Assembly: GCA_018065345.1 (NCBI GenBank)
Contig: JAGHTM010000123.1
Span: 1 to 25,505 of the forward strand
Direction of reading: 5' to 3'
Source: Candidatus Enterousia merdequi
Lineage (GTDB): Bacteria > Pseudomonadota > Alphaproteobacteria > Rs-D84
DNA length: 25,505 nucleotides
Shown: positions 1 to 19,409 of the stretch, in pieces
Layout: each line of letters opens with the position of its first letter
How positions within the stretch are numbered: the first letter of the stretch is position 1
Program-made: the position numbers and the translations under genes
Notes under the pieces: model-generated
What the model saw: only the letters and a program-made list of their open reading frames with translations
The model's database searches: none
Told to the model about the DNA's origin: nothing

Positions 1-278
1 AAGCTAGGACTATACTGGACAGAGCTAGCGTTATATAGGGATACGCACATAAGGGATTTGTAAATAAATAGACATATATACATTGGTGTAGGTGGGAAAG
101 GATATGGGGTATGGGATATATATGGGGCACTCCGGTAGGTATATGGGGGATGGGAGATGGAAGTACCGGTATATATTGTTACGGTTTAGATAGGAATACG
201 CTGCAGAATTTTTTCAATATTTTTACCCAGACTAAGTAAATCTAAGATATCCCTTACACGACCAATGTTCAACCCTCT

Positions 279-284
279 GAGCCA
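279..284 (+). mobile_element. att-like junction core GAGCCA (left end of module A)
   Basis: Same hexamer followed by a hairpin at the same spacing as at 5609, 11054 and 25331; overlaps the integrase remnant. Confidence 0.6.
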
Positions 285-292
285 CATTTTAC

Positions 293-329
293 AACCCTTC
301 GCAAAAAGCAGTTTGTCGAAGGGTTTTTT
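293..329 (+). terminator. Rho-independent terminator-like hairpin
   Basis: aacccttcg (293-301) pairs with cgaagggtt (317-325), inner caaa/tttg pairing, followed by a T run. Confidence 0.65.
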
Positions 330-454
330 CAAGTAAAAACAAGCACTTTTGTCTGTTAGTACACCAGCCATACGACTACATGGCAAATATAGTATTTCTG
401 CCTTGAAAAATCCGCTTTTATACCTATATAAACATCAATAATAAAGGTATAAAA

Positions 455-2092
455 ATGGGAAAGACAGAAATTGCACCACAAATAGATTGGAACAAAGACA
501 AATTAGGCATCAAAGATAATGTCATTGGCTTCGCTAATATTTTAAAACAAGAAAAATACACACAGGACGGAACTTCAAAAGTGTATTCTATTTCTGCAGA
601 ATTTGGTATTGGTAAGACGTTTTTTTGTGAACATTTACAGGATGTTTTAAAACAGGACGGCATACCTGTATCAATGTTAAACATCTGGAAAATGGATTTT
701 TATGAAAACCCTCTTGTTCCGTTGCTTATCAACTTACAACAGACCTACACAATGTATTCGAATACACCTGAAGCTTTCCCTAATCCGAAAAAACTGTTAA
801 ATATGTTTAAATCTTTAGTGGCAGGTATTTCTGTTGAAGCTCATGCGCCACTGTTTGGCAAAATTGTTATTGATGGCGAAAAAATCATAAACTGTCATGA
901 GAATCTGAAAAACACAGAAGCAAAAAACAGCATTTACACCGAATACAAACAATTCGAAACAGAATTAAACAATTTAAAATCTTTTCTGGGCGATTGGGCA
1001 AAAAGCATGAATAAGCCCATAGTCATTATAATCGATGAACTAGATCGATGCCGTCCGGATTATGCCGTTAAGACGTTGGAAATATTAAAGCATTTCTTTG
1101 ATATTAAAGGTTTTGTGTTTGTTCTTGCTATTGATGAAGAACAATTAAAAAACTCTGTAGAAACTTTATTTGGGACTAAAAACTTTGACGGTTATAAACG
1201 TAAATTTATCAATAACTCTTTCATTCTTCCTGCACCAAACAAAGTAAAATTTACTGATTTTTTATATGACAAATCTGGATTATCAAATGTTGTAAAACAA
1301 ATCGAATCCTGTGAAAAAGATTTGGTATTTAAGACGGTTCTAAAAGATATGGAATTACGATATGTTAGCAATGATCCGGCTCTCCAAAAGGAGCGAGATT
1401 ATAATAACAGTCAAACTTCTGAGCAAATTATTAAACATTATTTTGCAGCTTATAGTATATGGTTTAAATTCTCTTTACGTCAAATGGAACAAATTTTTGA
1501 TAGATTGGTTTTATTCTCAAAATATATTTTGAATTGCGATGAATTGTATTCGCCAGATTTAGCAGTATTTTTAATATGTTTACATGAATTCGATTTGGCA
1601 ATATATAACAAATTGCGTTCTTCTTCCAGCAAAGTTTATGGTCAACACGGTGGATTATTAAAGCATATTTATAGCACCAACAAAACAGAAGCCTCGCTTG
1701 CACGAGTTATTTATAAAGATGACTCAGACACAATGTTTGACACTCTAGATCGTAATCTAATTCCAAAAGTTCCTGAAATTCTTGGTTTTTCAGCGATCGG
1801 TTCCTTTAATCAACAACATACCGTTATCATTCACGATAACGTAGATCGTTTCTTTGTTGCTGAAGAGTCGCAACAACATCCACTGACTTGGATTGTTGAA
1901 ATACAGGATCATGAGACAGGGAAACGGTCAATGGCGCAAAATAATGGCAGAGTAGCTGTTATAACCAATTCTAAACGTGATGCCGCTTGGAAAGAACCAC
2001 CTGCCGATGTAGACACTGCAACACAATTTGATTTAGAGCAATTCCGCAAAGATTATTTTGATAAAACGGATTTCATTTTGAATTTTAAATAA
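455..2092 (+). CDS. KAP-family P-loop NTPase with long C-terminal extension
   Basis: Walker A variant SAEFGIGKT, then MLNIWKMDF and Walker B IVIIIDELDRCRPDYAVKTLEILKHFF, plus YKRKFIN; these motifs are typical of KAP NTPases. Confidence 0.85.
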   Translation: MGKTEIAPQIDWNKDKLGIKDNVIGFANILKQEKYTQDGTSKVYSISAEFGIGKTFFCEHLQDVLKQDGIPVSMLNIWKMDFYENPLVPLLINLQQTYTMYSNTPEAFPNPKKLLNMFKSLVAGISVEAHAPLFGKIVIDGEKIINCHENLKNTEAKNSIYTEYKQFETELNNLKSFLGDWAKSMNKPIVIIIDELDRCRPDYAVKTLEILKHFFDIKGFVFVLAIDEEQLKNSVETLFGTKNFDGYKRKFINNSFILPAPNKVKFTDFLYDKSGLSNVVKQIESCEKDLVFKTVLKDMELRYVSNDPALQKERDYNNSQTSEQIIKHYFAAYSIWFKFSLRQMEQIFDRLVLFSKYILNCDELYSPDLAVFLICLHEFDLAIYNKLRSSSSKVYGQHGGLLKHIYSTNKTEASLARVIYKDDSDTMFDTLDRNLIPKVPEILGFSAIGSFNQQHTVIIHDNVDRFFVAEESQQHPLTWIVEIQDHETGKRSMAQNNGRVAVITNSKRDAAWKEPPADVDTATQFDLEQFRKDYFDKTDFILNFK

Positions 2093-2120
2093 CGACATCG
2101 TATTTAAAATCGCTATTCTT

Positions 2121-2171
2121 TGATTTCAATTATGATTTCAATATTGATTTCATCATTGATTTCAGTAATGA
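2121..2171. repeat. Four tandem 12-bp units with invariant TGATTTCA core
   Basis: tgatttcaatta / tgatttcaatat / tgatttcatcat / tgatttcagtaa starting at 2121, 2133, 2145 and 2157. Confidence 0.85.
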
Positions 2172-2181
2172 GTCGAACGTA

Positions 2182-2295
2182 TTTTTTTAAGCAAAACCAA
2201 GCCTTTCGCTCATTTATTACCGAGTTTGATAATATGGTTTTCAAAAATTCGCGTTTTTTTGAGTTTATCGAACAATTCATGATTGTTGCCGCCTG
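2182..2295 (-). pseudogene. Second serine-recombinase-like C-terminal remnant (not in the ORF track)
   Basis: Minus-strand translation QAATIMNCSINSKKREFLKTILSNSVINERKAWFCLKK aligns by eye with VLTDKSACFYLKK (186-386) and DKKRVLIKMLTSNFFIDGCNVQISLKK (25244-25505). Confidence 0.5.
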
Positions 2296-2412
2296 TCCAG
2301 GTGCTGATGTTTTGTTTAGTAAGAATACTGTAAAAACACATGAAAAAAGTCTTTACCAAGAATACTTTCATAGTATATAATGAAGTTATCATAATTATCA
2401 TAGGAAGGGATT

Positions 2413-4398
2413 ATGCTGAATAAAGATAAACTTAATGCTTTGCTAACAGAATACAAATCTGACTTTTCTGCCCAATGGGAAAAAGAAAACTACAAAAGAA
2501 TTGCGATCAAGCACTTTCAAGACAATTGGGATATAGACGCCAAGAACTTTCACGAAATGTTGAAGAATAGTCTTAAAAAAGCTGGAAATTTACTGTTAAG
2601 TGCAAATTTCTTTCCAGGTGGCATGATTCAAAATTTTGCAGAAAGATATCCTGAACAAGTACGCAAAATGTTTCGGAATTTATTCGATGAAACAAAAGAT
2701 TTGGCAGAACGCATTGAAAACTTTAAACAAGCTGCTGATAAATTATTAGAAAAATATCAACAGAAAGAAAATGCCGCTAATCATTATCAAACAGAAAATT
2801 CCATCAGCACATATTTATGGTTACATAATCCCGATAAATATTATATTTATAAGTTCAGCGAATACAAAAGCGTTGTTAATGCATTGGATGCGGAATACAA
2901 GGTATTATGGGGAAAATCAATAGACAATTTAATTTCTTGCTTTGCGTTGTATGATGAAGTCTGCAAAATAATCGAGCAAGATAACGAACTTGCTGATTTG
3001 GTTCGTACACATACAGACAATCAACACTTTAAGGACAAAAACTTCAAGGTAACAACAGTTGATTTTTGTTTCTTTGTTTCACGTAAAAAAGACACAGGAG
3101 AAGTTATGGCAAAAACAAACAATGTCACAAGCCAAACGAACCACTGGTGGTTAACAGCCAATCCAAGCATCTGGAAATTCTCTGATATTATTATAGGTTC
3201 TGAACAATATTATACTTTGCTTAATTCTAACGGCAACCCAAGAAAGATTCCTCAGAATTTCCGAGATGCAAAAGCGGACGACTTGATTATAGGATACGAA
3301 GCTTCCCCTAAAAAAATGATTACCGCATTGTGTAAGGTAACTAAAAAAGATAAAGAAAAGCTGTATTTCACAAAAATTAAAGATTTTGTAAATCCTGTTG
3401 ATTATCAAACCCTAAAAGCAATACCAGAACTGGCGGATTTAGAATTCTTCAAAAACCCAAACGGTAGTCTGTTTAAAGTAACAGAAATGGAATACAATGC
3501 CATCATGGACTTAATTGATGATGGTAATGCCCAACCAAATCTGTTAAACAGCGTAACATCTTTTGATAAATATACGAAAAAAGAGTTTTTGAGAGATGTG
3601 TTTATGTCATCAGAAAAATATGACGAATTGGTTGATCTATTAAAAACCAAGAAGAATATTATTTTACAGGGCGCACCGGGTGTTGGTAAAACATATGCCG
3701 CTGAACGCCTTGCGTATTCCATAATGGGCAGCAAGGATAAATCGCGTGTCAAATTCATTCAGTTCCACCAAAACTATTCATATGAAGATTTTGTTATAGG
3801 ATATAAACCAACAAATACAGGATTTGAACTGAAACGAGGCGTATTTTATGAATTCTGCATGAAAGCGGCGAACGACCCATCACAAGATTATTTCTTTATA
3901 ATCGATGAAATCAATCGCGGAAACATGAGCAAAATCTTCGGTGAATTGCTTATGATGATAGAATCTGACTATAGAAACAAACCTGTACAATTGGCATACA
4001 CAAAGGATTCTTTTATTGTGCCAGAAAACCTACATATCATCGGCATGATGAATACTGCAGACCGTAGCTTAGCCATGATAGATTACGCTTTGCGTCGCAG
4101 ATTTAGTTTTGTAAATATGGAGCCAGGGTTTAACACTGCAGGATTTAAGAAATATCTTGAACGAAACCCTAAATTTAAGGCATTAACAGCAAAGATTGTT
4201 GAATTAAACGCAAAAATTACAGCAGACGCATCTTTAGGGAAAGGTTTTTGTATCGGGCACAGCTATTTGTGCAAACCTGATTCTGATATAAAATCGATCA
4301 TAAAATACGATTTGATACCATTGATTGAAGAATATTGGTTTGACAATGAAACAACTCAGAAACAACACATAACCTTTCTGGAAGAGCTTGTTAAATGA
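2413..4398 (+). CDS. mcrB: McrB-family GTPase subunit of a type IV restriction system (unknown N-terminal domain + EVE-like domain + AAA+ GTPase)
   Basis: GAPGVGKT Walker A, FIQFHQNYSYEDF, IIDEINRGN Walker B, McrB signature MNTADRS, ALRRRF. The central segment HWWLTANPSIW...AKADDLIIGYEASPKK looks EVE-like. Confidence 0.92.
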   Translation: MLNKDKLNALLTEYKSDFSAQWEKENYKRIAIKHFQDNWDIDAKNFHEMLKNSLKKAGNLLLSANFFPGGMIQNFAERYPEQVRKMFRNLFDETKDLAERIENFKQAADKLLEKYQQKENAANHYQTENSISTYLWLHNPDKYYIYKFSEYKSVVNALDAEYKVLWGKSIDNLISCFALYDEVCKIIEQDNELADLVRTHTDNQHFKDKNFKVTTVDFCFFVSRKKDTGEVMAKTNNVTSQTNHWWLTANPSIWKFSDIIIGSEQYYTLLNSNGNPRKIPQNFRDAKADDLIIGYEASPKKMITALCKVTKKDKEKLYFTKIKDFVNPVDYQTLKAIPELADLEFFKNPNGSLFKVTEMEYNAIMDLIDDGNAQPNLLNSVTSFDKYTKKEFLRDVFMSSEKYDELVDLLKTKKNIILQGAPGVGKTYAAERLAYSIMGSKDKSRVKFIQFHQNYSYEDFVIGYKPTNTGFELKRGVFYEFCMKAANDPSQDYFFIIDEINRGNMSKIFGELLMMIESDYRNKPVQLAYTKDSFIVPENLHIIGMMNTADRSLAMIDYALRRRFSFVNMEPGFNTAGFKKYLERNPKFKALTAKIVELNAKITADASLGKGFCIGHSYLCKPDSDIKSIIKYDLIPLIEEYWFDNETTQKQHITFLEELVK

Positions 4399-5486
4399 TT
4401 ATCGACAAAGGTATCCGTATAAAAAATATTTACTATATGCTCAGCTATGCTTTTGAATTTATAAAGCATACTGGCTATTCAAATATGGATACCGAAGAAT
4501 TTGAGAACATTCACGATTTGTTTGCGGCTATATTAGCCCAAGGGATGGCTTATCAATTAAAAAAAGGGCTATACAAAGAATACGTACATAAAAGCGACAA
4601 TTTATCAACTGTACGTGGCAAAATAAACATTACAGAAACTATTCGCAACAAGATCCTGCAAAGACGCATTATAAATTGCGAGTTTGATGAATTGTCAGAA
4701 AATAATATTTACAATCAGATTATCAAATGTACAGCATCATTATTGCTTCGTCATGGTAATGTTGAAGCCAAGTATAAATCGCGTTTAAAGCAGAGTTTAT
4801 TGTTTTTTTCAAATGTTGATGATATTGATTTAAAAACCGTAAAATGGGGTGCAATAACCTTTCATAGAAACAATCAAAACTACAGAATATTAATAAATAT
4901 ATGCAATCTATTGGCACGAGGCCTATTACAAACAACCAACAATGGACACACTAAATTAGCTACTTTTATTGACGAACAAAGTATGTGCCGTTTGTACGAA
5001 AAATTTATATTAGAATATTACAAACAAGAACACAGCAATACAGTTAAATCAGAAGCGTTGCAAATTCCTTGGGTTTTAGATGATGATAATCAAAATCTGT
5101 TACCAATTATGCAAACAGACATTACACTAACTAGGAAAGGTAAAAATAGGCAAGACATACTGATTATCGATGCAAAATATTACCGAAATACGCTATCAAG
5201 CAACAATCACTCTGATAAATTAACACTGCATTCAGGCAATATGTATCAAATATTCACCTATGTAAAGAATAAAGATGCGGATTTGTTGCGTAAAAACATA
5301 CAGCACAGGGTTTCTGGAATGCTGCTGTACGCAAAAACAGAAGAACAAATCACACTTGATAATTCATATCAAATGAGTGGGAATAATATATGTGTAAAAA
5401 ACCTTGATCTAAACCAAGACTTTTCTGAAATACGAAAACAATTAGACCAAATCTTAACCGACTGTTTTGACACTTTAACATATTAA
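4395..5486 (+). CDS. mcrC: McrC-family restriction endonuclease subunit
   Basis: Overlaps the mcrB stop codon (ATGA). IKNIYYMLSYAF N-terminus, PD-(D/E)xK-type TDITL...IIDAKYY, NMYQIFTY and GMLLYAK. Confidence 0.92.
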   Translation: MIIDKGIRIKNIYYMLSYAFEFIKHTGYSNMDTEEFENIHDLFAAILAQGMAYQLKKGLYKEYVHKSDNLSTVRGKINITETIRNKILQRRIINCEFDELSENNIYNQIIKCTASLLLRHGNVEAKYKSRLKQSLLFFSNVDDIDLKTVKWGAITFHRNNQNYRILINICNLLARGLLQTTNNGHTKLATFIDEQSMCRLYEKFILEYYKQEHSNTVKSEALQIPWVLDDDNQNLLPIMQTDITLTRKGKNRQDILIIDAKYYRNTLSSNNHSDKLTLHSGNMYQIFTYVKNKDADLLRKNIQHRVSGMLLYAKTEEQITLDNSYQMSGNNICVKNLDLNQDFSEIRKQLDQILTDCFDTLTY

Positions 5487-5531
5487 CGTCAAACACTTTG
5501 CTTTACACCCTATGGCGCATTCGTGTAATCT

Positions 5532-5614
5532 TTTAGAAAGATTTCGCAAACTCTACTCAGGCTAGTAAATTCTTCTGGATTTTCTACCCGATACGTGCGA
5601 GTTATCTCGAGCCA
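5532..5614. repeat. 83-bp direct repeat, copy 1 (right end of module A; encodes an integrase tail on the minus strand)
   Basis: 76/83 identical, without gaps, to 25254-25336. Ends in CGAGCCA. Minus strand reads WLEITRTYRVENPEEFTSLSRVCEIFLK. Confidence 0.92.
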
Positions 5615-5622
5615 CAGTTAAC

Positions 5623-5650
5623 ACCGTTCCTAAAAGGAGCGGTTTTTATT
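5623..5650 (+). terminator. Rho-independent terminator-like hairpin
   Basis: accgttcc-taaaa-ggagcggt followed by ttttatt. Confidence 0.7.
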
Positions 5651-5662
5651 TATCACATCATA

Positions 5663-5690
5663 TTGACTTTTTACTTCTTGAATATAAAAT
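5663..5690 (+). promoter_or_regulatory. Putative sigma70 promoter of the Hsp70-like gene
   Basis: TTGACT-N16-TAAAAT; AGGAG ribosome-binding site at 5704-5708 ahead of the ATG at 5715. Confidence 0.45.
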
Positions 5691-5714
5691 GTTATTTATA
5701 TCTAGGAGCAGCCT

Positions 5715-6989
5715 ATGTCCATATATGTTGCGGGCATTGATTTCGGAACTACTAATTCATCAGCAGCCATTTCCGATGGCAAAGTTGTGCAAATGATAGA
5801 TGTAGAAAAAGGTAAAGATACAATACCTACTGCTTTGTTTTTTCCTGATAAATCTAATCAAATACTCTATGGCCGAGAAGCCCAAACAAAATACACCAGC
5901 GAAGAAAATCCTGGCCGTTTTATGCGCAGTATGAAACGTATATTAGGAACGTCTTTAATGCAAGAAGGAACTGTTATCAATGGTAAATCTGTAAGCTTTG
6001 ATGATATCGTTGGTTATTTTATAAAACACATAAAACAAAAGATCGATAAAGCCGCCGGACAAAATGTAGAAAGCGTTGTTATGGGGCGACCTGTTCACTT
6101 TTGTGACGACGACCCAGAAGGTGACAAGCGCGCCGAACAAGAACTGAAAAAAATTGCCCTGGCTGCTGGATTTAAACATGTAGCATTTCAATACGAACCT
6201 ATTGCTGCAGCTTTTGCTCACGAACAAAATATAACATCTGATAAATTAGCTTTTGTGGTAGACATTGGTGGTGGAACTTCTGACTTTACTGTTATCAGAT
6301 TATCACCAAACAGAAAATTTAATTTTGATAGAACCTCTGATGTTTTAGCAAACACAGGCGTTCGCATAGGCGGTAATGATTTCGATAAAGATTTATCTAT
6401 AAAATCTTTTATGCCTTGCTTTGGTTTAGGAACAAAATATAAAACTTATAACAAAGATATTTATTTACCAACAGGACCTTTTATCAGCCTGTCAACTTGG
6501 AGTTCTGTTAATGAAGTTTATAATTACAAGACATTAAATATGGTAAAAGATTATGTTGTTTGGGGTTTAGAACCAGAAAAGACTCAACGCCTTTACGAAA
6601 TCATAGAAAATCGCTTGGGACATCAAAATCTGGATTATGTGGAAAATGCAAAAATTGCTTTATCAGAAATAGCAGAATACGATATTAAACTAGACTTTTT
6701 ATCAGATGCACCAACAATTCATATAAATCGTGAACTATTTGAAAAAGCTATTGAACAAAATGTTAAAAAAATCGAAAAATCAGTTCAAGAATGTTTGAAT
6801 AAGGCAAAAGTCAAAAACACTGATATAGAGTTGGTAATTTTAACTGGTGGTTCAACCGAAATTCCATATATTAACAACGCAATGCAATCATATTTTCCAA
6901 AAGCTAAAGTTTCTTCTGAAAATAAAATGGCTAGTGTAGGTTTAGGACTAGCATATGATGCCATGCGCCGTTTTTATAAAAAACCATAA
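5715..6989 (+). CDS. yegD: YegD-like Hsp70-family ATPase (no canonical peptide-binding domain)
   Basis: GIDFGTTNS, GRPVHF, FQYEPIAAA, VDIGGGTSDF, IGGNDFD and VILTGGST; 424 aa, shorter than DnaK. Confidence 0.85.
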   Translation: MSIYVAGIDFGTTNSSAAISDGKVVQMIDVEKGKDTIPTALFFPDKSNQILYGREAQTKYTSEENPGRFMRSMKRILGTSLMQEGTVINGKSVSFDDIVGYFIKHIKQKIDKAAGQNVESVVMGRPVHFCDDDPEGDKRAEQELKKIALAAGFKHVAFQYEPIAAAFAHEQNITSDKLAFVVDIGGGTSDFTVIRLSPNRKFNFDRTSDVLANTGVRIGGNDFDKDLSIKSFMPCFGLGTKYKTYNKDIYLPTGPFISLSTWSSVNEVYNYKTLNMVKDYVVWGLEPEKTQRLYEIIENRLGHQNLDYVENAKIALSEIAEYDIKLDFLSDAPTIHINRELFEKAIEQNVKKIEKSVQECLNKAKVKNTDIELVILTGGSTEIPYINNAMQSYFPKAKVSSENKMASVGLGLAYDAMRRFYKKP

Positions 6990-7012
6990 ATTGTAAGTTA
7001 TTATTTCAGACA

Positions 7013-7891
7013 TTATACATAGGAGTCTTCCATATGTCTGCATGCAATTAATTTCTTTAATCTTTTTATATTTTGTTCTCTAGAAACCCAACTTAATTCT
7101 GGATGTGCAAAACTCATTAAAAACATGCATATACAATAAAAGAATTGTCGTGATTTAAAACCATTATCCATCTTCTTTCCATATCCAATTTCCAAGAATT
7201 TTTGTGGTTCACCAAACATATATCTAAATTCATAAGCAGGGTCTGCATAATGAAAAGCACCAAAATCTATTACTCCTGTTATTTGATAATCTTTTGTTGA
7301 CACCATTATATTATTAAAATGCAAATCTGCATGACACGGCAACAAATCAATTGATTTTGCAGTTTGTTCAAAATTCAATAAACTATTATTAATAATTGAT
7401 ATTTCTTCTTTGGTTAACTGTTTTTGTAAACCAGGTGTAAACCATTTATAAAAATTATCTTTCTGATATTCAGCAGAACGTATTAATCTATTTTGTAACT
7501 TTGATACCTTAATAGAATTAATTTCTGCGTAAATCTTTCCGTATTCAATTAAAAAATTTTCACGTATTTTTTTAGGCAAATTTCTATATATTTCATACGA
7601 AAAAGGATTACCGTCAATTTTTTCTTCTATTATTATTTCACGACCATCTGATAACAATCCATGATTTATCATATTTGGTGTAATAAAATTTACTTTATTT
7701 TTAATATATTCCAAAACATCACTTTCAGAATTTTGATACTCATTTATACTGTTGCTTTTTGATACTTTTACTACATATTTATTATTGATATCCCAGGTTT
7801 TAGCAAATAAACCTTCACCCAAAAATTTAATATCCTTTATAGAAACATCAGAAATATTTTCTAATAAAAACAGATATATTTCATTTTCCAT
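7013..7891 (-). CDS. Aminoglycoside-phosphotransferase/choline-kinase-fold protein
   Basis: LGEGLFAK glycine loop, VVKV, Brenner motif CHADLHFNNIMV, GVIDFG and DPAYEF. Substrate cannot be inferred. Confidence 0.85.
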   Translation of the reverse strand: MENEIYLFLLENISDVSIKDIKFLGEGLFAKTWDINNKYVVKVSKSNSINEYQNSESDVLEYIKNKVNFITPNMINHGLLSDGREIIIEEKIDGNPFSYEIYRNLPKKIRENFLIEYGKIYAEINSIKVSKLQNRLIRSAEYQKDNFYKWFTPGLQKQLTKEEISIINNSLLNFEQTAKSIDLLPCHADLHFNNIMVSTKDYQITGVIDFGAFHYADPAYEFRYMFGEPQKFLEIGYGKKMDNGFKSRQFFYCICMFLMSFAHPELSWVSREQNIKRLKKLIACRHMEDSYV

Positions 7892-8016
7892 TTCTAACTT
7901 TATCTATATTTACAACAATTTGCAAATTACTTACAAACAATATAATCATTATACTAAAACAAACTCATTATCTGCTACAATCAATTAAGATAAAACATCT
8001 TTGCAATTCATGATGT

Positions 8017-8508
8017 TTATCTCATTTTTTGAATATCTAAAATTTCTGTTCTAAATGTTCCCAAAGGAATTTTTACCACACGTTTTTCACCAACCTTTGC
8101 ACCCATTAAAGGAGATACAATTGGTGCATTATAACTAAATAATGCTTTCTTATGATCTTGTCCTCCAACAGGTACAACACCTATTGTTCTTTCACGAATT
8201 TCGGTATTTACAATATTTTCCTCTCTTACTTTAACCCAACAATAAATACCCACAACAGTTGGTTTATTTGGAACAACGTCTGAAAAAACATAATAAATTT
8301 CAACTTCTCGCACAGCTTGAAACAATCTATCTTCTGCTAATTTTTCTTCTCTTGTTGCATTTTCATAAGCAAAATTATCATGCCATGCATTTGTATCACC
8401 TTCAAAAGCAACTTTTTTATCAAGTCTTATTCGATCCAAATCTGCTTGTAATTTGGCAATTCTTTCCGTACATAATTTTAAATATTCTTTAGTAACAAAA
8501 GTTTTCAT
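8017..8508 (-). CDS. GreA/GreB-family transcription factor with variant coiled-coil tip
   Basis: N-terminal coiled coil with GDTNAWHDNFAYE tip; C-terminal SYNAPIVSPLMGAKVGEKRVVKIPLG. Confidence 0.8.
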   Translation of the reverse strand: MKTFVTKEYLKLCTERIAKLQADLDRIRLDKKVAFEGDTNAWHDNFAYENATREEKLAEDRLFQAVREVEIYYVFSDVVPNKPTVVGIYCWVKVREENIVNTEIRERTIGVVPVGGQDHKKALFSYNAPIVSPLMGAKVGEKRVVKIPLGTFRTEILDIQKMR

Positions 8509-8519
8509 TTATACGTCCC

Positions 8520-9305
8520 TTATTCAAATAATAATTCTGGTGTTTCACGACTATTTATTCCAATTTCGCGATATAAGTCTTCTGTATTACAAGACACAAT
8601 TTTTTTATCACCCAAACCACATCCATCTATAATTTCTTGATACAAACCTGTATCATCAGATTCTATTTCTATATATGGTCTCAACCTTGGCCATTGATCT
8701 ATATCTATTTCTGCATTCTTATACCTGTATTGAGTTCTTATTTTTTCTTGAACATTTCTTTTTGCAAAACCTAATGCAACCAGAAGTCTATCTGCTTCAT
8801 CAACAGAATCTACTTTTATCTCATATTCTGCAACTTTTTGTATAGAATCTGTATTTTTATCAAAAACATGTTTAACCGTTAAAGTCACATTACCGTTTGT
8901 ATCACGCAAACGCACCCATTTATTTGGATTTATATGTAATGATTGTATTTTATTAATAATAGGTAATGTAGTAAACTCATCTATATTATCTATTACATCT
9001 ATAATATCTGGTAAATGTTGTACAGAATATTGTTCTATTACAGGTATAATATCTGCATCTGGCAATAAATCTTCAGCTTCCAATAATATTGTTTTTAATT
9101 TTTGTTTATATGCATAAACCGTCAACAAATTGACATTTGTTTTTAACATATCTATAGCTTCTGATAACCTGTGAGATATTGTAGGTAAATCATAAGTATA
9201 TATTTTCTGTTTTGTTTTAAATATGAATTCTGCACCAAAATCACGCAACTTTTGTTCAGCTTCTTGAACATCAACATCTAAAATTTTTATTTCTTTTTCA
9301 AACAT
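8520..9305 (-). CDS. CYTH-domain protein (class IV adenylyl cyclase/triphosphatase fold) with an internal insertion
   Basis: N-terminal EKEIK motif, QKIYTYD, WVRLRD, VTLTVK, EYEIKV, QEKIRTQY, IDIDQWP and YIEIES. Confidence 0.85.
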   Translation of the reverse strand: MFEKEIKILDVDVQEAEQKLRDFGAEFIFKTKQKIYTYDLPTISHRLSEAIDMLKTNVNLLTVYAYKQKLKTILLEAEDLLPDADIIPVIEQYSVQHLPDIIDVIDNIDEFTTLPIINKIQSLHINPNKWVRLRDTNGNVTLTVKHVFDKNTDSIQKVAEYEIKVDSVDEADRLLVALGFAKRNVQEKIRTQYRYKNAEIDIDQWPRLRPYIEIESDDTGLYQEIIDGCGLGDKKIVSCNTEDLYREIGINSRETPELLFE

Positions 9306-9350
9306 ATTACACCTGCCATGTTTACAGAATAAAACAATATAATTGAAAAT

Positions 9351-9551
9351 TCAACTTATATTACTTGTTAACCAGATATCCGCAATCATATAATTACCAG
9401 CAATATTTCTGAATTTTGAAAAATTAACATTATGAAATTTTGCTATTAATAATTCCTTAAATTCAGATTCATTCAGATAACGTTCACCAACATCATGTAA
9501 AAATTTCCCATCAAAACCATCGGTATCAATTACCAATAAATATGAAAACAC
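9351..9551 (-). pseudogene. Possible truncated gene fragment (66 aa)
   Basis: Protein-like composition and same strand as the CYTH gene, but GTG start straight after a stop and no recognised motif. Confidence 0.25.
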
Positions 9552-9669
9552 AAGTATTCAGCAATATATCAAGCTTTATATTACAGCAGTAATATTTGTA
9601 AATATTTGTTGATATATTGAATATTGTGACATAAAATCAATACGATAATGAATTTTTAAGGGTTTAAAA

Positions 9670-10521
9670 ATGGCACAACAAACATATAAAATGCGGTTGT
9701 TTAAAATTATTGGCACAGAAGATGTTTATATCGACAATTTATTACGATCCGACAACATACAAGATAGTGAAACTTTAGGTTGTGGGTTTGATAATTTTCT
9801 TTTTGTAAGAAAAACTGTTTCTGATGACCATATTGAATTATACGTCGCTCGTTCTGATAAAAACGATATTGCAATTGTGCAAAATAACAATATAACAGAA
9901 CAAAAACTTGAAGAAGGCCAAACTGCGATACATCAAGGAATGTTTTGCATAATATACCATAATTATGTTTTACTTGTCACAGAAAAAAATATGCAAATAT
10001 ATTGGCTGAAACAATATCTAAAAATAAAATTTAATGCCGAATATAAAATAGAACCTGTTGTTGTTGATAATCTAGCAACACATATTAAAGACGTTTCAGG
10101 GATACAGTTTGCTGGATTACAGGATATCCAATCCGATGATGAAGCAGTAAATAATATATTAAAAAAGACCAAAGAATCTGCTTCAGCTGATCTATTTCAA
10201 AAATACGAAATGGGAATCGTCATTAGTCTTGTTCCAAAACGTTTTCCAAAAAAATTGGATTTACAGCGAAATGTGATGGAAAAACAACAAGAAATTGATA
10301 ACACAGTAAAAATATTTGTAGAAAATTGCGAATCTGATAATTTTTTAATCCGGTTAAAAAACGGCAAATACGTTAATAGCAACAAGTTTTATGTATCCGG
10401 AATATTCACAATGCCTAATGTGTTGAATTTAGAATTCAGAACTGATAAAATATTTACCATACTTAGGGAGTGGAAAAACAAACTAATAGCTGACAGGACC
10501 ATAAAAAATGATGTTAAATAG
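9670..10521 (+). CDS. Hypothetical soluble protein (283 aa)
   Basis: Long ORF with AAGGG upstream of the ATG; overlaps the next gene; no family recognised with confidence. Confidence 0.8.
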   Translation: MAQQTYKMRLFKIIGTEDVYIDNLLRSDNIQDSETLGCGFDNFLFVRKTVSDDHIELYVARSDKNDIAIVQNNNITEQKLEEGQTAIHQGMFCIIYHNYVLLVTEKNMQIYWLKQYLKIKFNAEYKIEPVVVDNLATHIKDVSGIQFAGLQDIQSDDEAVNNILKKTKESASADLFQKYEMGIVISLVPKRFPKKLDLQRNVMEKQQEIDNTVKIFVENCESDNFLIRLKNGKYVNSNKFYVSGIFTMPNVLNLEFRTDKIFTILREWKNKLIADRTIKNDVK

Positions 10522-10900
10522 TATACTATCTTTTTTCACCTGGTTTGCAAAATGGGATTCCAGCAATTACATAAGCTACAGTCTAACTTATGTGTCGATA
10601 GTAGTCGGAATTTTAATGGTTATCCTTGACAATTTAAGCAAAGATAAATCTGAACATAACACACGTGATTATAAAATTGTAGCTATTGCATTTAAAAAAC
10701 GAAAATTATGCAGAATTAAAACATTATTCTTTTTGTTGTTATCTCTGATTTTCTTGGCTTTGATTGGTGAGCTATGTAAACAAATTCACGTATTGTATGG
10801 GATAATAAATTTTATTTATATTGTTTTATCAATTTTTACTATTTACAAAACCCTAGCATTGCCACTTGATATTATCCGGGAAGTAAAAAAACAAATTTAA
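10508..10900 (+). CDS. Hypothetical membrane protein (about 3 transmembrane segments)
   Basis: Hydrophobic stretches LTYVSIVVGILMVIL, TLFFLLLSLIFLALIG and VLYGIINFIYIVLSIFTIY; overlaps the upstream ORF by 14 nt. Confidence 0.75.
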   Translation: MMLNSILSFFTWFAKWDSSNYISYSLTYVSIVVGILMVILDNLSKDKSEHNTRDYKIVAIAFKKRKLCRIKTLFFLLLSLIFLALIGELCKQIHVLYGIINFIYIVLSIFTIYKTLALPLDIIREVKKQI

Positions 10901-10947
10901 TATATAAAAAAAGATTCACTTTTTACCAAAAATACAGTATTCTTAAA

Positions 10948-10971
10948 AGTGAGATACAAAGTGGGATACAA
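10948..10971. repeat. Tandem 12-mer AGTG(A/G)GATACAA, possible integrase arm-type sites
   Basis: agtgagatacaa followed directly by agtgggatacaa, about 70 nt upstream of the tRNA 3' fragment. Confidence 0.5.
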
Positions 10972-11043
10972 ATTATACCAAAAAATCTCGGTTTTTCGGG
11001 AAAAAGGTTAGATTTCCAAGCATTTCAGAAAAGTGGCTTGGAA

Positions 11044-11059
11044 CCAGTTGCCCGAGCCA
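11044..11059 (+). mobile_element. Displaced tRNA 3'-end fragment (att site), probably from tRNA-Asn
   Basis: CCAGT-TGCCCGA-G-CCA has the 5+7+1+3 layout of T-stem 3' strand, acceptor strand, discriminator G and CCA. CCAGT is complementary to ACTGG in the fragment at 18761. Confidence 0.7.
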
Positions 11060-11066
11060 AAAATTA

Positions 11067-11099
11067 GCCGTAAATTCTTGAATTTACGGCATTTATTTT
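11067..11099 (+). terminator. Rho-independent terminator-like hairpin
   Basis: gccgtaaatt-cttg-aatttacggc (perfect 10-bp stem) followed by atttatttt. Confidence 0.75.
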
Positions 11100-11150
11100 A
11101 TCCACGCCTATGGCAATTTGTTCCGGTATAGCATCCTCAAAAACATTATT

Positions 11151-11235
11151 TTTTACACAAAATTACACATTTTTACACCATTTTGAAAATAATTTTACAT
11201 ATTTCTACACCACAAGGCCGATTTTTTACACCACA
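11151..11235. repeat. Cluster of TACAC(CA) direct repeats
   Basis: TACAC at 11154, 11164, 11174, 11206 and 11227. The 19-mer ttacatatttctacaccac (11195-11213) recurs exactly at 18658-18676. Confidence 0.7.
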
Positions 11236-11694
11236 AAATACGATTTTCAAGTATTTTCAATATATTATAAAAGTCAGAACAACGGACGGCTCGTCCGTGT
11301 GTCGCTTTACGCATTTTTCAATCAGCAATAAACCGCCTGCACATAGCGGATTTCTAATGTTTTTACAATATCCGAATACTTTTTGAAGTCAACTATAAAA
11401 TGATGTTTCTTTGTAACAAACAACTGGACGTTTATAGAAAGATATTGATGAATGCAACACCCCTAAAATGATTGTTGATGAAGTACAAACATTTTTGGGA
11501 AATTGAACCAAGTAATAAAATTGATTTTATCATGCTCTACTTCGCTTCATGCCGATCATTACACGAGTTAGAGAACGCCATACGCAGAACTAACAACGGC
11601 AACCCAACTGCCGGCAGACATGGTTGCTCCGCCGCATCCAGCACAAGTTATTCCAAATGGTTGCATTGTGGAAACATCGTTTCTAAACAAAATA

Positions 11695-12372
11695 CTAACA
11701 AGGCCTGTGAACACAAACTCTGTTCATATACTCGACAAGAACATCCACATTCGTTGTCGGACAATCTAAAAAACATTTTTGTTTAAGGTGCAAATGATAC
11801 ATTCTTAACTTTTTAGCGTTTTTTATCGCACATTTTTCTGATTCTGGCGAATTCACAATTACATCATAATCAATCGCCTTGTTGGTCTTGGGGTCATATT
11901 CAGGAAAATACCGCCTTGTTTTTCTCTCTATTTCTCTTTTATTTAGAACAGCAGTTGTGTATTCAAAATGCAAAACAGCCCATAATTCAAATTGCGGATT
12001 AGAAAAAACACAATTGACTTTATTTGGCTCGACTTTGTCTAAAGACGAACATTTCGACAATACGGTACATAATTGTCGTTTTTCTGTTCTATTAGCCAAT
12101 TTATTATCGTTATCAAGCACAATAAATACAACTGCATTAGGGTATTTAGCTTTGCTAGTCGTGGCAATAGCATACAATTGCTCCACTCCTGTTTTACTCA
12201 TAGCATTAGGAATTATTCTTATGTTCCTAGGTTCTCTAAAATGTCTAGCAACATATGCCCCAAAATATTCCGGCTCTGTTTTTTTACCCTCACAAACAAT
12301 TACAATCTTTACTTGTTGTGCTAAACGATTTTCAACGATATGCCTTTTAGGCAAAAAACGTCTCCCTGACAT
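11695..12372 (-). CDS. rloB: RloB-family protein (AbiLii-like)
   Basis: IVIVCEGKKTEPEYF, VFIVLDND, SNPQFELWAVLHFE and C-terminal TNVDVLVE. Confidence 0.85.
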   Translation of the reverse strand: MSGRRFLPKRHIVENRLAQQVKIVIVCEGKKTEPEYFGAYVARHFREPRNIRIIPNAMSKTGVEQLYAIATTSKAKYPNAVVFIVLDNDNKLANRTEKRQLCTVLSKCSSLDKVEPNKVNCVFSNPQFELWAVLHFEYTTAVLNKREIERKTRRYFPEYDPKTNKAIDYDVIVNSPESEKCAIKNAKKLRMYHLHLKQKCFLDCPTTNVDVLVEYMNRVCVHRPC

Positions 12373-12374
12373 AT

Positions 12375-13637
12375 CTATAACTCCCCAACCAATTTGGCTA
12401 AGCTGTCAATACCACCTAGATATGGTATCCCACCAAATCGACCTTCTAGATACCCTGTCTTATAATCATAATTACTTCTTACATCAGTAAATGTTGATAA
12501 AGGATATATAACCGAATTGGCCTTTTGTGGATCTTTTTCTATAAACCAAATTTCATCTCTTGTTAGTGTATCGGGAGACATTAACGATACATCGTGTGTT
12601 GTCGCCACAAGTTGTGCCCCACATTTATTGATGCGTCTATCATGGAACATTTCTACTATTTTTTTTATTATCAAAGGATGCAAACCTTTATCTAATTCAT
12701 CGGCAATATATACCCCCCCCCCTTTCAGAAACATTGGCAATATTTGTGTTAGTATTCGCAAATAATTTTCTGTCCCATCACTTTCTTCTCCGCCATTCAA
12801 TTTTTTATTCAAGCCCTTATGCTCAAACAACGGGAAATAAAATATATCTTCTGAAATATTTAAATTGTCCAAATTAGCATCTGTTATTTTTTTCATCAAC
12901 TCCAAACGCGCCTTATCGGGCATTTTTTCAATGCTAAAACCGGTAATTCCAACATCTGCATGTTTTAAAAATGATGACACCAAATCTTTTAATTCCGGAT
13001 CATCAAAAAGCTGTTTTATTAAGCCCTTACTTTTTTCTTTTGCTAAAAAGTTATAAGCATCAGAATAAGGCTCTATATTTCGCAAATTTAATATTTCCAG
13101 AATAGTTACATCTTTTCTAGTATTTAATCTTTCTTTTACTTCGTCTTTTATGCTTTTGCTTATCGAGATATTCTTATGCCAACTCACGTTAACGCCATCT
13201 CTTACAAATAAACGTTTTAACGAATTATTACTATTGAAAGTGCAAAATTCTTCAAACAATATCTCACTCTTGGAATATTTAACACAATACTCATATATTA
13301 TATCGTCTATAACAAACTCGAATTCGAAAGCTATAGGAGCAGAATTTTTATCAAAAGTGACACCTGGCATTTTTGTATCAACACTTGTATTTATCCTTTT
13401 TAACAATCTGGATATCACATTTATAATCTCCATAAAATTGCTTTTTCCAGAAGCATTCGCACCATACAATAGTGTTACAGGTAAAATATTTTCACTTTTT
13501 TTAGACCTCACTTCAATAAAATCAAAACGCGAATCTGAAGAATACTTTGTTTCCGCTGTAAAAAATATTTCTTGTGGTTCTTCGTTAAAAGAATAAAAGT
13601 TTTCGACCTTTATTCGTCTCAAATTTTTCAAAGCCAT
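12375..13637 (-). CDS. AAA_21/ABC-type ATPase (RloA/AbiLi-like)
   Basis: YGANASGKSN Walker A, ESDGT signature, YIADELDKGLHP Walker B, ATTHD, RDEIWFIEK and YLEGRFGGIP; 2 nt from the rloB start. Confidence 0.88.
   Translation of the reverse strand: MALKNLRRIKVENFYSFNEEPQEIFFTAETKYSSDSRFDFIEVRSKKSENILPVTLLYGANASGKSNFMEIINVISRLLKRINTSVDTKMPGVTFDKNSAPIAFEFEFVIDDIIYEYCVKYSKSEILFEEFCTFNSNNSLKRLFVRDGVNVSWHKNISISKSIKDEVKERLNTRKDVTILEILNLRNIEPYSDAYNFLAKEKSKGLIKQLFDDPELKDLVSSFLKHADVGITGFSIEKMPDKARLELMKKITDANLDNLNISEDIFYFPLFEHKGLNKKLNGGEESDGTENYLRILTQILPMFLKGGGVYIADELDKGLHPLIIKKIVEMFHDRRINKCGAQLVATTHDVSLMSPDTLTRDEIWFIEKDPQKANSVIYPLSTFTDVRSNYDYKTGYLEGRFGGIPYLGGIDSLAKLVGEL
12713..12722. repeat. C10 homopolymer (G10 on the coding strand) inside the ATPase gene
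   Basis: ta-cccccccccc-ttt, encoding K-G-G-G-V just before Walker B. Confidence 0.85.
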
Positions 13638-13779
13638 AATACATCCTTATGGTATATACGAGACCAATTATTACATAATTTTATAAAAAAGTCAAGAATT
13701 TTGTAATTTTTTTTCAAAAAAATACGTTTTTGGTGTTCACACAAAAAAAACATTAGTGCTTACCCCATTTCTCAACCTC

Positions 13780-16368
13780 TCATAAATCACCCAGCGCACA
13801 CCTTATCTGTTCGGAAACATTCAATCCACCAGCATTTTTACTGGCCATAACAAACACACCTTTGCCGTCTGATTGTTTCTGCCATAATTGCCCTATATTT
13901 TCTTTTTCTTTGGTATCGTCAGTACTTAAAAGATGCCCACCTTTATATTCAACAACCAATATTCTACCATCGTTCATCAGCGCAACAAAATCTGGATAAA
14001 AATAATCTGAGCTTGTTGGCAACCGGAAAGAATTTGGATGGCGAGCAACGTTGCGCACCCAATATGCCACATTCGGCAAACTATCTATTGCCTTTGCACA
14101 TTCTATTTCTTCTTCTGTATCCATAACTGGTATTTTGGTACTACCTAAAAAGTGTTTTTGGAATTTATAATTGCCATGATATGTTGGTAATCCATCATAC
14201 ATATGATCTTTGAATTCTACACCAAAATCGAAATCCAATTTTACACGTTCCGGGTGACCAAACATATATTGATTAAAGTTATCTTTACGAGCTTTTTGAC
14301 GTGCCGCATCAATTTTTGCCTTAATCTTATTCAACAATGCATATTTTGCCATCATAAGTTCAGCCATCGGCAAGTATCTTTCATTTTGCAATGATTCCAC
14401 CAGTTTACGCAACCATTCCACCATAATTGGTTGAGGTATATCATCTTGATGTAATCTTGAATCTAACCAATGTATCAAATTTGCAGCGGTCCAGCTTTCT
14501 ACCTCGATGGAATCCATTGTCAATTGTTCGTTGGATGCTGTGAAGGCGAGTTTGTTCCCGTCAATATCTATAACGTATCCTGTTCCCTGTTGTTCTATAG
14601 AAAATTCTGCTGGAGTTAATACCGGTTTCGTATACTCTTCTATATTCCAATCAGATTGTTCAAAAATAATATCTGGCTCTGCCAACACAAAACTGTCTTG
14701 TTCTGCAAATTGGATACATACAGTAGGAACTTTGAACTCTTTATTTTGAGTGGCAAATGATTGTTCTTTTTCTTCATGTTGAAAATTGTAAAACTTTGTT
14801 CTTACTTCATTCGCCTTAGTCGCTGTCATATTTTGACACAACAGTTCAACATCTTCCTGTTTCGTTTCATCTGTGAAGACAATTGTTTTATTATTATTTT
14901 CTAGTTTTATTGTTTGTGGAACAAACAGCCCATCCAATGGTTTGTCTAAATCAATCTTGTTTTGCTCTGGACGCCCAAACAATCCTGGAATTTCCACCGG
15001 CTTTTGTTGTATTGCACTCTGCGCCTCATTACTATCAAAACCACGTTTTTGCAACGCTTGCACCAATTCTTCTGCTGCCTGACCTGCGAAACCATCTTTC
15101 ATAACATATGCATATGCTTTATTTAATGCAGAGATTTTACGATTCTTAGCATACGGCATTCTCATTACACGCCCCAATAACTGGATTACCGCTGTATTAC
15201 TGCGAACATTTGCCAAAGAACACAAAACATAAGCAAAAGAACAATCCCATCCCTCTTTCAGTGCCTCAACGGTGATGATGTATTTTACCTTGCAATCTTT
15301 TGAAAACACATCTATCCCATCAAGCTCTTTTTGCTCTCCTGTTACGATAGCTATTTCCTCTTTTGGAATGTTCATAACATCTGTTAAATAATTATTCAAC
15401 GACTCAACGTTATGTTCGCCATTTTTGTCTTGTGCTTGAAAAAGAATAATTGGTCTGACATAATCTTTTTCATTTGCTGCCGCATCTTCTAATTCTTTGC
15501 GCTTAGCTATTGCCTCTGTTATTGCCTGTTCCCAATCTTCGTGTTCACGTAATTCTATAGGCAGTTTGATCATTTCTTCTTCTTTCAACTCTGCCGCACG
15601 AACATTGTATAAAGTGTTATTGTTTGTTTGCGGTGTTGCTGTCATTTCCACAATTGCCGCAGGATTCAAACGACCAAAAGTATCTTGGGTTAAGGCCGAT
15701 ATCTCATTATGTGCCTCATCAACGATCATTATCGGATGCAAATGATTTATTAAATTTGCAAAAGAAAACTTGAGTTGCCCCTTATCATCCAGCTCCATTG
15801 ATTGGGTAGCGTTTATCTTTGTGAAATGTGGTTCTAAATTTTCGTTGTGTGCATATACGTTATACTTTTCTGTTTTACTTTGTCTGAACGCTTGTATTGT
15901 GGTCACAACAATACATGCGCCGTTCTCAACATCAGCTGGTCTGATATTAAATTTTTCCTCTAAATCAAAAACCCTTATCTTGCCATTAAATTGCTCATCT
16001 AAAACTTTTCTATATGGATGACGAGGATTCTTTAATGCCTCTGACGTTTGTCTGCGGATAGAATCACTCGGCACTATCCATAATACAAAAGGATTTTCAG
16101 TTTCACACCAAGTGTCAGCGACAATCTTGATTGCGTGTGCGCCCACAATGGTTTTTCCACCACCTGTTGGTATTTTTATACACACTCTTGGTGTGTTTTT
16201 TATATTATCCCATACAACATAGTCAGACTTTAATGCACCTAAACGTGTAGCTATTTCAAAATCAGATGTTATGTTTGTAAAAGCTGCCTTTGGGCCAGCG
16301 ATACGACACTGTTCAAAAAATTTCTGTAACACATTAAGTGTTTGTATTTGATAGTTCTTTAGTTGCAT
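13780..16368 (-). CDS. res: Type III restriction endonuclease/helicase subunit Res
   Basis: QLKNYQ, IPTGGGKT, IVDEAH, MTATP, LKEGWD, QLLGRVMR and C-terminal FYPDF...VVEYKG; TAATG overlap with mod. Confidence 0.9.
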   Translation of the reverse strand: MQLKNYQIQTLNVLQKFFEQCRIAGPKAAFTNITSDFEIATRLGALKSDYVVWDNIKNTPRVCIKIPTGGGKTIVGAHAIKIVADTWCETENPFVLWIVPSDSIRRQTSEALKNPRHPYRKVLDEQFNGKIRVFDLEEKFNIRPADVENGACIVVTTIQAFRQSKTEKYNVYAHNENLEPHFTKINATQSMELDDKGQLKFSFANLINHLHPIMIVDEAHNEISALTQDTFGRLNPAAIVEMTATPQTNNNTLYNVRAAELKEEEMIKLPIELREHEDWEQAITEAIAKRKELEDAAANEKDYVRPIILFQAQDKNGEHNVESLNNYLTDVMNIPKEEIAIVTGEQKELDGIDVFSKDCKVKYIITVEALKEGWDCSFAYVLCSLANVRSNTAVIQLLGRVMRMPYAKNRKISALNKAYAYVMKDGFAGQAAEELVQALQKRGFDSNEAQSAIQQKPVEIPGLFGRPEQNKIDLDKPLDGLFVPQTIKLENNNKTIVFTDETKQEDVELLCQNMTATKANEVRTKFYNFQHEEKEQSFATQNKEFKVPTVCIQFAEQDSFVLAEPDIIFEQSDWNIEEYTKPVLTPAEFSIEQQGTGYVIDIDGNKLAFTASNEQLTMDSIEVESWTAANLIHWLDSRLHQDDIPQPIMVEWLRKLVESLQNERYLPMAELMMAKYALLNKIKAKIDAARQKARKDNFNQYMFGHPERVKLDFDFGVEFKDHMYDGLPTYHGNYKFQKHFLGSTKIPVMDTEEEIECAKAIDSLPNVAYWVRNVARHPNSFRLPTSSDYFYPDFVALMNDGRILVVEYKGGHLLSTDDTKEKENIGQLWQKQSDGKGVFVMASKNAGGLNVSEQIRCALGDL

Positions 16369-17897: not shown

Positions 17898-17962
17898 TTT
17901 TTTCTTTTCCTTTATGAAAAAGGTAGCCCAAAACAAAGGGTAAAGTCAAGAAGAACAATGAA

Positions 17963-17986
17963 AACACACACATTTCCGTGCGTGTT
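17963..17986 (-). terminator. Possible terminator after the 144-aa gene
   Basis: Minus strand aacacgcac-ggaaat-gtgtgtgtt followed by tt. Confidence 0.4.
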
Positions 17987-17995
17987 ACTAAAAAA

Positions 17996-18430
17996 CTATT
18001 GTAACTTGTCTTTTATTCCTAACTCTTTACGCATGTTTGTTGCTAATTTTACTATTTTATCTGCTATTTCATTTGATTTTTCCTCTATTTTTCTCTGGTC
18101 TTTCATTTTATCATAGCAATTCCATATCTCCGTATCCAATTTATAGTATTCATCATAAATTTTTTTGGAGGAATATATTAACATTTTTCCCTGCAATTCA
18201 TTAAACATCGTTTTGCACTTTTGCGGCCACTCGTGACTACGACGATATTTTTCATGTTCCATCAACACTTGACATACGGCGATATACAACTCTTCACGTT
18301 TTTGTTTTATATAAACTCCTCGACTACGTTTACTTTGCAGCCATTCCCAGAAACCAGTAAAACCACCTGTCAACAATGTACCGAGAATGATGCCAAATAA
18401 TTGAGATGAAAAAAAATCGGACCATGTCAT
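17996..18430 (-). CDS. Hypothetical protein with a single N-terminal membrane anchor and helical soluble part
   Basis: LFGIILGTLLTGGFTGFW followed by basic residues; GAGG upstream of the ATG. Confidence 0.75.
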   Translation of the reverse strand: MTWSDFFSSQLFGIILGTLLTGGFTGFWEWLQSKRSRGVYIKQKREELYIAVCQVLMEHEKYRRSHEWPQKCKTMFNELQGKMLIYSSKKIYDEYYKLDTEIWNCYDKMKDQRKIEEKSNEIADKIVKLATNMRKELGIKDKLQ

Positions 18431-18649
18431 TATTTACCTCTTTTGATATATTTATTTTGCTATCAAAATACTAGTATAAAACAGACGTTTTATCAACAGC
18501 TTTTAGTTTACAAAATCGCATCGAAATCGCCACGATTTCGTTTCTTATTTAAATATTCATTAGATTTCTCATATAAATTCTTATTTCAGAATTGATTTTT
18601 GTGTTAAAAAAACATTGATAAAAGGGTATTTAAATATGTTTTAGACCAA

Positions 18650-18750
18650 TTACAAAATTACATATTTCTACACCACTTTGTGTGACACCACACCAACTAC
18701 ACACAAAAAAGCGCTGATTTCTGCGGTGCACATAATGTTTTTACTACACG
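18650..18750. repeat. Second TACAC/ACACCAC repeat cluster next to the tRNA fragment
   Basis: Exact 19-mer shared with 11195-11213, plus gacaccacacca, actacacac and actacacg. Confidence 0.6.
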
Positions 18751-18760
18751 GGACAATTCG

Positions 18761-18786
18761 CTGTTAATCCGTATGTCACTGGTTCG
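18761..18786 (+). mobile_element. Internal tRNA-Asn(GTT) fragment (anticodon loop to T-loop), att remnant
   Basis: CTGTTAA-TCCGT-ATGTC-ACTGG-TTCG matches the layout and, from memory, the sequence of bacterial tRNA-Asn. The 5' anticodon-stem strand and the 3' end are missing, so it is not a functional tRNA. Confidence 0.8.
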
Positions 18787-18893
18787 GTGCAGAAAAACTA
18801 ACCACACATAATGAAGCCTTGTTCAGCGATGCCGGAAGAATACCTGTTCTTATAAACACACCATATATTGAAGAATAAAAAAATGGAGATTTT

Positions 18894-19406: not shown

Positions 19407-19409
19407 ATT

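Follow-up and report, generated by a model that had tools for sequence, protein, structure and literature searches.

Strict directionality makes large serine integrases valued tools of genome engineering; a separate directionality factor is normally required for it. To our knowledge, attP of the known enzymes lies outside the int ORF, and their targets are protein-coding genes or intergenic DNA. The attB sites of phage Mx8 are located in tRNA-Asp genes. In this phage (IntP/IntX) attP lies inside the int coding sequence, and integration produces a new int 3' end with an altered C-terminus (PMC6070905, citing Tojo 1996 and Magrini 1999). SSV1-type archaeal integrases are encoded by a gene that spans attP and is partitioned on tRNA-gene integration (PMC4383910). 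Tycheposons are integrase-bearing and cargo-only elements stacked in tandem at tRNA genes, with defence or adaptive cargo and, in a minority, a large serine recombinase (bioRxiv 10.1101/2020.12.28.424599). According to the Islander paper of 2014, no serine-family integrase was then known to use a tRNA gene as its target (PMC4383910).

The window analysed here comprises 25,505 nt of Candidatus Enterousia merdequi DNA and is the entire contig C67 of a 737-kb, 85% complete assembly of 151 contigs. Its genes make up a defence island. KAP NTPase, EVE-McrB, McrC, an Hsp70-like ATPase and an APH-family kinase are accompanied by GreA-like and CYTH proteins, RloB with AAA_21, type III restriction Res and Mod, a UDG-family protein, an FtsK-like ATPase, a double-AAA ATPase and a WYL protein. 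No tRNA gene, tmRNA or Rfam family was found in the window.

The top hit of a direct-repeat search of the window is a pair of 83 nt (5532–5614 and 25254–25336) with 76 of 83 bases equal (92%); the runner-up measures 53 nt at 72%, and nothing else exceeds it. The minus strand of both copies encodes a peptide of 30–34 residues that starts with Trp-Leu (W-L). The pair, its seven differences and the three synonymous changes in the minus-strand frame had been listed in the initial annotation, and both the repeat search and the codon count agree with them. The mismatches fall into six codons, of which three are plainly synonymous (Val, Leu and Ser), two replace a residue (S/G and V/A) and one carries a double change (ACG to TCA, T/S). 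Over 28 codons, NG86 counts 5 synonymous and 3 non-synonymous differences (pS 0.273, pN 0.046). Most probably, the 83-mer combines the P' arm of an att site at the 3' end of tRNA-Asn with the last 30–34 residues of an integrase, with attP inside the integrase's own gene and a C-terminal tail that is swapped on insertion.

At the right end of the window the tail is joined to an integrase. Here the type-1 tail (copy 2, 25247–25336, minus strand) has 30 codons and a stop codon at 25244–25246. It is in frame with the last 56 codons of a large serine integrase (25337–25504, minus strand), which is open to the contig end, and the arrangement is that of an attP-type junction with the core CGAGCCA at 25330–25336 (plus strand). 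An in-frame connection at 25336 and the assignment of the right-edge ORF to a serine recombinase had both been put forward from the letters; the former holds, and the latter is supported over the length that is available. The ORF is continuous across the core, and the 56 available codons are collinear with residues 430–482 of the 494-residue, tRNA-Asn-associated large serine recombinases L041 and L042 (47% identity, E 1e-13). The enzyme is seen only downstream of its coiled coil, as the contig ends there and the remainder is absent from the 151-contig assembly. A Pfam search with the right-edge ORF of 86 residues gave no match, and no recombinase Pfam match was found anywhere in the window. 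The KKSL...KG codons of this integrase coincide with a hairpin and T run on the plus strand (25345–25382).

Copy 1 is an orphan. It was described as preceded by an in-frame stop, and a TAA is indeed located at 5618–5620, two codons ahead of W. The tail itself (5513–5614, minus strand) comprises 34 codons from W-L. Its end had been placed at ...FLK; the actual end is four codons later, at the TAG in position 5510–5512, and the C-terminus reads ...KDYTNAP. With this orphan, a module reaches its far (P') end. The core CGAGCCA of copy 1 (5608–5614, plus strand) equals the last 7 nt of tRNA-Asn(gtt), and the crossover must fall inside it. It is followed on the plus strand (5615–5650) by an 8-nt spacer, a G+C-rich hairpin (5623–5643) and a T run. 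On the tRNA-sense strand the stretch resembles a terminator, and in the integrase frame it contains stops.

At the left end, a type-2 tail (189–284, minus strand; 32 codons after W-L, stop 186–188) adjoins a tRNA-Asn-type integrase stump (285–365, minus strand; 27 codons). The tail is homologous to that of the full-length integrase on contig G153:C17. All 27 residues of the stump are identical to the end of an integrase in genome G035, its DNA is 92–97% identical to the integrase 3' ends of six other species, and it holds a hairpin and T run at 293–329. An integrase body joined to a different tail had been proposed for 279–284. A differing tail of 32 residues and integrase homology are present, but the body is a stump of 27 codons. 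Likewise, the sequence ...GCKM-WLEITRTY predicted for a circle of module A (285–5614) is formally correct, but the module's integrase is that stump only. Past the stop of the type-2 tail, a purine-rich stretch (60–180) with repeated TATATGGGG-like units extends towards the left contig end.

A further junction of like layout is located at 11044–11090 (plus strand), where 16 nt of the tRNA-Asn 3' end, core included (to 11059), precede a terminator hairpin (11067–11090). On the minus strand of this junction (11000–11059) the frame from W is open for 31 codons and displays a tail-like ...F.E.LG....F.KN pattern. An internal fragment of tRNA-Asn, from the anticodon loop to the T arm, is present at 18761–18786. 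Between the genes of the KAP NTPase and McrB lies a decayed internal piece of an integrase 3' region (2170–2300, minus strand) that has neither core nor tail. Because this fragment separates the two genes, module A is itself composite. The fragment is 85% identical to G013:C3:14141-14255 and is preceded by four tandem 12-nt units (2123–2172). KAP NTPase and McrBC are found apart in other genomes. Altogether, the integrase content of the window consists of the last 56 codons of one enzyme and two decayed stumps, with no complete integrase within the contig. The window is notable in that joined, orphan and stump junctions lie side by side in one defence-island array.

The window can accordingly be read as a stack of defence-carrying modules in one shared orientation. 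On the tRNA-sense (plus) strand, each module would run from a P arm, which is an integrase end or its remains, to the tail and core. Junction 284 would combine the type-2 tail of the left neighbour with the integrase stump. The module 285–5614, with KAP NTPase, the decayed integrase fragment (~2170–2300), McrBC and a type-1 tail, would be an element without an integrase. At junction 5614 the orphan tail would stand beside the stop-riddled hairpin, and from 5615 more modules would follow, including the junction at 11044–11059. Finally, at 25336 a type-1 tail would meet the 3' end of the next integrase.

Inspection of related integrases places this arrangement in a family that uses tRNA 3' ends. 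A paralogous integrase with Resolvase, Recombinase and Zn-ribbon domains is encoded on contig C143 of the same genome, and its ORF stops within a convergent tRNA-Gln gene. The relatives have Resolvase (PF00239), Recombinase and Zn-ribbon-recombinase domains and a long coiled-coil region; with these resolvase/serine-recombinase domains, tyrosine recombinase chemistry was not found in the family. Integrases of this type are present in 53 of 151 genomes of the genus. In 27 of the 30 best genus loci, the ORF terminates within a convergently oriented tRNA gene (Gln, Asn, Pro, Glu, Met or His). The similarity between integrases ends at W, the sole invariant column of the junction, which is encoded by TGG, the complement of the encoded CCA. 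Beyond W, the residues are antisense tRNA, 2–25 in number depending on the tRNA. The junction rule is family-wide, being followed by at least 38 of the 80 loci collected from Alphaproteobacteria, Gammaproteobacteria, Melainabacteria, Elusimicrobia, Saccharibacteria and other candidate phyla. The int ORF contains the crossover site, with the boundary at W in the 27 genus loci and a frame that is continuous across the core at 25336 and 284 of the window. The family appears widespread, being found in about a third of the sampled genus genomes and in many phyla, several with small genomes. Its location at tRNA 3' ends contrasts with the statement of 2014 (PMC4383910).

Full-length integrases with non-tRNA tails after W are encoded at loci L113, L114, L123, L131, L132, L136, L138–L140, L148 and L173, from other Alphaproteobacteria and a Peribacteria MAG (for example WFKNPTQDLD..., WFDFDKSD... 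and W(T/S)T..IEHLDEFE...). Such ends may represent tandem junctions or additional types of native tail. An integron was also considered for the window and ruled out: there is no tyrosine recombinase (IntI) among the window ORFs, and each junction combines a mimic of a tRNA end with a tail that has no conserved fold.

Comparison of occupied and empty sites locates the tail at the opposite end of the element. On contig G133:C7 the integrase reads into tRNA-Glu(ctc). The strand of the integrase also carries, 11.4 kb further upstream, a homologous orphan tail that begins with six bases identical to the tRNA end. In the four genomes with an empty site (G065, G012, G063 and G070) the flank of this orphan directly adjoins tRNA-Glu(ctc), and the alignment ends exactly after the 6-nt core. 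The comparison thus fixes both ends of the element, with the tail just inside the far end. A crossover at W-L, as deduced in the initial annotation, agrees with this break between occupied and empty sites and with the 27 of 30 best loci in which integrase homology ends and tRNA begins at W. A 3' coding segment displaced to the opposite element end is also present on contigs G013:C3 and G153:C17. The orphan at 5513–5614 of the window, whose element is without an integrase, fits such a displaced far-end segment.

Arrays in related genomes display the exchange of tails. On the well-assembled contig G013:C3, four modules lie behind tRNA-Asn, and a tail and CGAGCCA close each of them. The sole integrase of this array bears the tail of its neighbour, and a type-1 tail like that of the window closes the integrase's own element at a distance of 12.7 kb. 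On G153:C17, a full-length integrase carries a type-2 tail of the kind at 189–284 of the window, and the end of its own element is a type-1 tail. That tandem insertion hands an integrase the tail of its neighbour had been anticipated, and it is seen directly on these two contigs. Every core in G013 has on its right an arm that nearly equals the native downstream arm of the tRNA, which could keep the tRNA-proximal junction a target. A different configuration is found at loci L018 (G102:C23, 45–308) and L019 (G121:C3, 46–342). There, an inverted duplicate of the last ~37 integrase codons plus a type-2 tail sits just upstream of a full-length tRNA-Gln integrase, and inversion between both sites would exchange the integrase tail.

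The type-1 tail occurs in 64 of 257 genus genomes at ~90 places. Nearly all copies are orphans, often two or three per contig in one orientation. Across 48 copies, one antisense frame is open in 38 and four other frames in one to nine each; the tail frame is open in 44. Positional entropy in the tail frame is 1.10 at third positions compared with 0.74 and 0.60 at the others, second positions being the most conserved, with a pN/pS of 0.48. The ratio is almost as low, at 0.54, for the one antisense frame whose third positions coincide with those of the tail frame, so pN/pS alone cannot separate both frames. Second-position conservation, continuity with integrase ORFs and the gapless alignment across subfamilies favour the tail frame; the tails of the Asn, Gln, Glu and Met subfamilies differ in DNA and align as proteins without gaps. 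Coding constraint on the tail across many copies, on which the earlier protein interpretation depended, is thereby directly observed.

Conservation of this kind could also arise if the repeat were only the DNA arm of an att site or the scar of an island end, maintained by integrase binding, with an open frame that is meaningless as protein. The first ~25 bp beside the core are the place where a serine integrase is expected to bind, but conservation extends over ~100 nt, far past a half-site. Most copies are orphans without an upstream ORF, and several are truncated or contain stops; full-length integrases with such tails nevertheless exist (G153:C17 and several cross-phylum loci). Furthermore, the variation is codon-periodic in the predominantly open frame, the replacements are conservative (E/D, V/I, L/F), and tails for different tRNAs align as proteins despite differing DNA. 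The low confidence at which the tail is modelled would suit a mere DNA arm. In the AlphaFold2 model of the G153 integrase with its tail, residues 10–31 of the tail form a helix with pLDDT of ~50–66, and there is no confident docking. In view of the codon-level pattern, an arm or scar without a protein function is improbable.

In all copies the tail begins with TGGCTCG, which is the last 7 nt of tRNA-Asn on the opposite strand. Following the tRNA-sense strand past this core, a spacer of 6–9 nt precedes a sequence-variable hairpin and a T run. For 18 of 23 integrase 3' ends, with folds judged by eye, the codons for KKPF and NG/KG form a hairpin 8 nt past CCA (z about -3 to -5.6). Since these complementary integrase codons lie 8 nt past CCA, the element seems to give a terminator to a tRNA that is severed from its own. 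Judged from sequence, the KKPF...(S)NG/KG hairpin looks like a dual-coding terminator that would be brought to the tRNA by the element. Hairpins are present in the window at 293–329, 5623–5643, 11067–11090 and 25345–25382 and at loci L021, L024, L025, L035, L041, L044 and others. At orphan junctions the hairpin often has a high G+C content and contains stops, and a decayed version of the integrase 3' region comes after it. At L083, L087, L091 and many orphan junctions, a conserved non-coding unit extends ~170 nt to the right of the core. It consists, in order, of terminator 1, an inverted repeat GTTCGATAA...TTATCGAAC (codons of the LSN motif), a second terminator and a partial tRNA-Asn-like TTCGAGTCC...GCCC. 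This unit looks like a retained, decayed integrase 3' end. The reverse possibility, that the supposed integrase body is a mere translated terminator hairpin, was ruled out; the hairpin is real but lies within genuine integrase coding sequence.

A gene-like end of this sort raises the question of whether the repeat is an independent small gene, either for a minus-strand peptide of ~34 residues or for a plus-strand small RNA that ends in CCA and a terminator. Many orphan copies have ATG or TTG right before W, but the codon at this position varies (ATG, TTG, CTG, TCT, TTC, ACT and ATC), and there is thus no conserved start. The plus strand of every copy ends in CCA followed by 6–9 nt, a hairpin and a T run, as at the end of a tRNA-type gene. 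Hairpin and CCA are, however, accounted for by mimicry of the tRNA end at the att site. The copies correspond to no Rfam family and are not called as tRNA or tmRNA, and RNAalifold finds no conserved structure of the tail on either strand (energies -0.06 and -1.27). A separate small gene is therefore very unlikely, and less likely than a protein-free att arm.

Besides the lack of a complete integrase and of a tRNA gene in the window, several search results count against the 83-mer as att arm and integrase tail. Among the ~90 type-1 tails in the genus representatives, none is joined to a demonstrably full-length integrase. A profile search of 1.84 billion representative proteins gave 29 matches and no full-length integrase with a type-1 tail; the strong matches have 30–252 residues and the few longer ones are weak internal multi-stretch matches. 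Because this protein library is clustered at 50% identity, it may conceal a full-length type-1-tailed integrase. Scans of IMG/VR with the tail profile, for a circular element with integrase and tail, and of metagenomes with the 86-residue ORF yielded no relative. A circular or excised joint 5614-25336 was not recovered from public runs, which hold at most 27% of the sampled words in short contigs of low depth. One 428-nt contig from a public run corresponds to the integrase 3' end over positions 25449 to 25331 and breaks off at the core. It reaches ~230 nt beyond the right end of the window and has 20 more letters to the left, which is weakly suggestive of another junction partner.

In the proposed mechanism, the integrase gene would be situated at one edge of the element, with a frame that crosses CGAGCCA (plus strand), whose minus-strand reading is W-L. 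If the element is circular or has a tandem neighbour, the enzyme would end in the conserved tail. After integration beside a tRNA gene it would end in 2–25 antisense-tRNA residues, and the tail would be orphaned at the far end. The stacking of arrays counts against this mechanism, since recombination of an attP-type with an attR-type site is not known from canonical serine integrases. While the element is integrated, orphan tails are untranslatable within an integrase. Selection that acts while they are joined, in a circle or tandem, thus best accounts for their constraint, and the tailed protein would be the form under selection. On these grounds, the tailed protein is plausibly the integration-competent form. 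The enzyme of the excised state would need its tail, and loss or exchange of the tail would alter the enzyme of the integrated state. If this is true, a reaction that rewrites the C-terminus of its own enzyme would constitute a built-in record of the integration state and possibly a self-contained switch. Additionally, the design would account for the module-by-module build-up of a 25-kb defence island with KAP NTPase, McrBC, type III R-M, RloB/AAA_21 and WYL-linked ATPases.

A wider interpretation is more doubtful. The arrays might be a serine-integrase analogue of the integron, in which modules without an integrase are moved in trans, the upstream module supplies the C-terminal 'exon' of the next integrase and the tail sets integration versus excision without a directionality factor. 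Each module would keep a full attP-type site (P-arm hairpin, core and tail exon). The right arm, resembling the native downstream arm of the tRNA, would regenerate the target and permit stacking, and the tail of the enzyme would report its genomic context. We regard the integron-like scheme as unlikely.

The literature search found no paper that describes a serine integrase spanning its attP or that characterises this family. With Bxb1, phiC31, A118/LI, TP901-1 and TnpX, the relatives share the Resolvase/Recombinase/Zn-ribbon domains and the coiled coil as well as a short att identity. The SSV1-type integrases, in contrast, are tyrosine recombinases of archaeal viruses. Their gene is split into two substantial parts and does not merely lose its last ~30 codons. 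Tycheposons differ in their marine cyanobacterial hosts, and a term search of the tycheposon paper gave no integrase tail that crosses an att site. The closest precedent is Mx8 IntP/IntX, with which the present family shares the layout of an att site inside int. The Mx8 enzyme is a phage tyrosine recombinase, whereas the family described here consists of large serine recombinases, with defence cargo, a crossover right at the CCA terminus of the tRNA and elements that stack in arrays.
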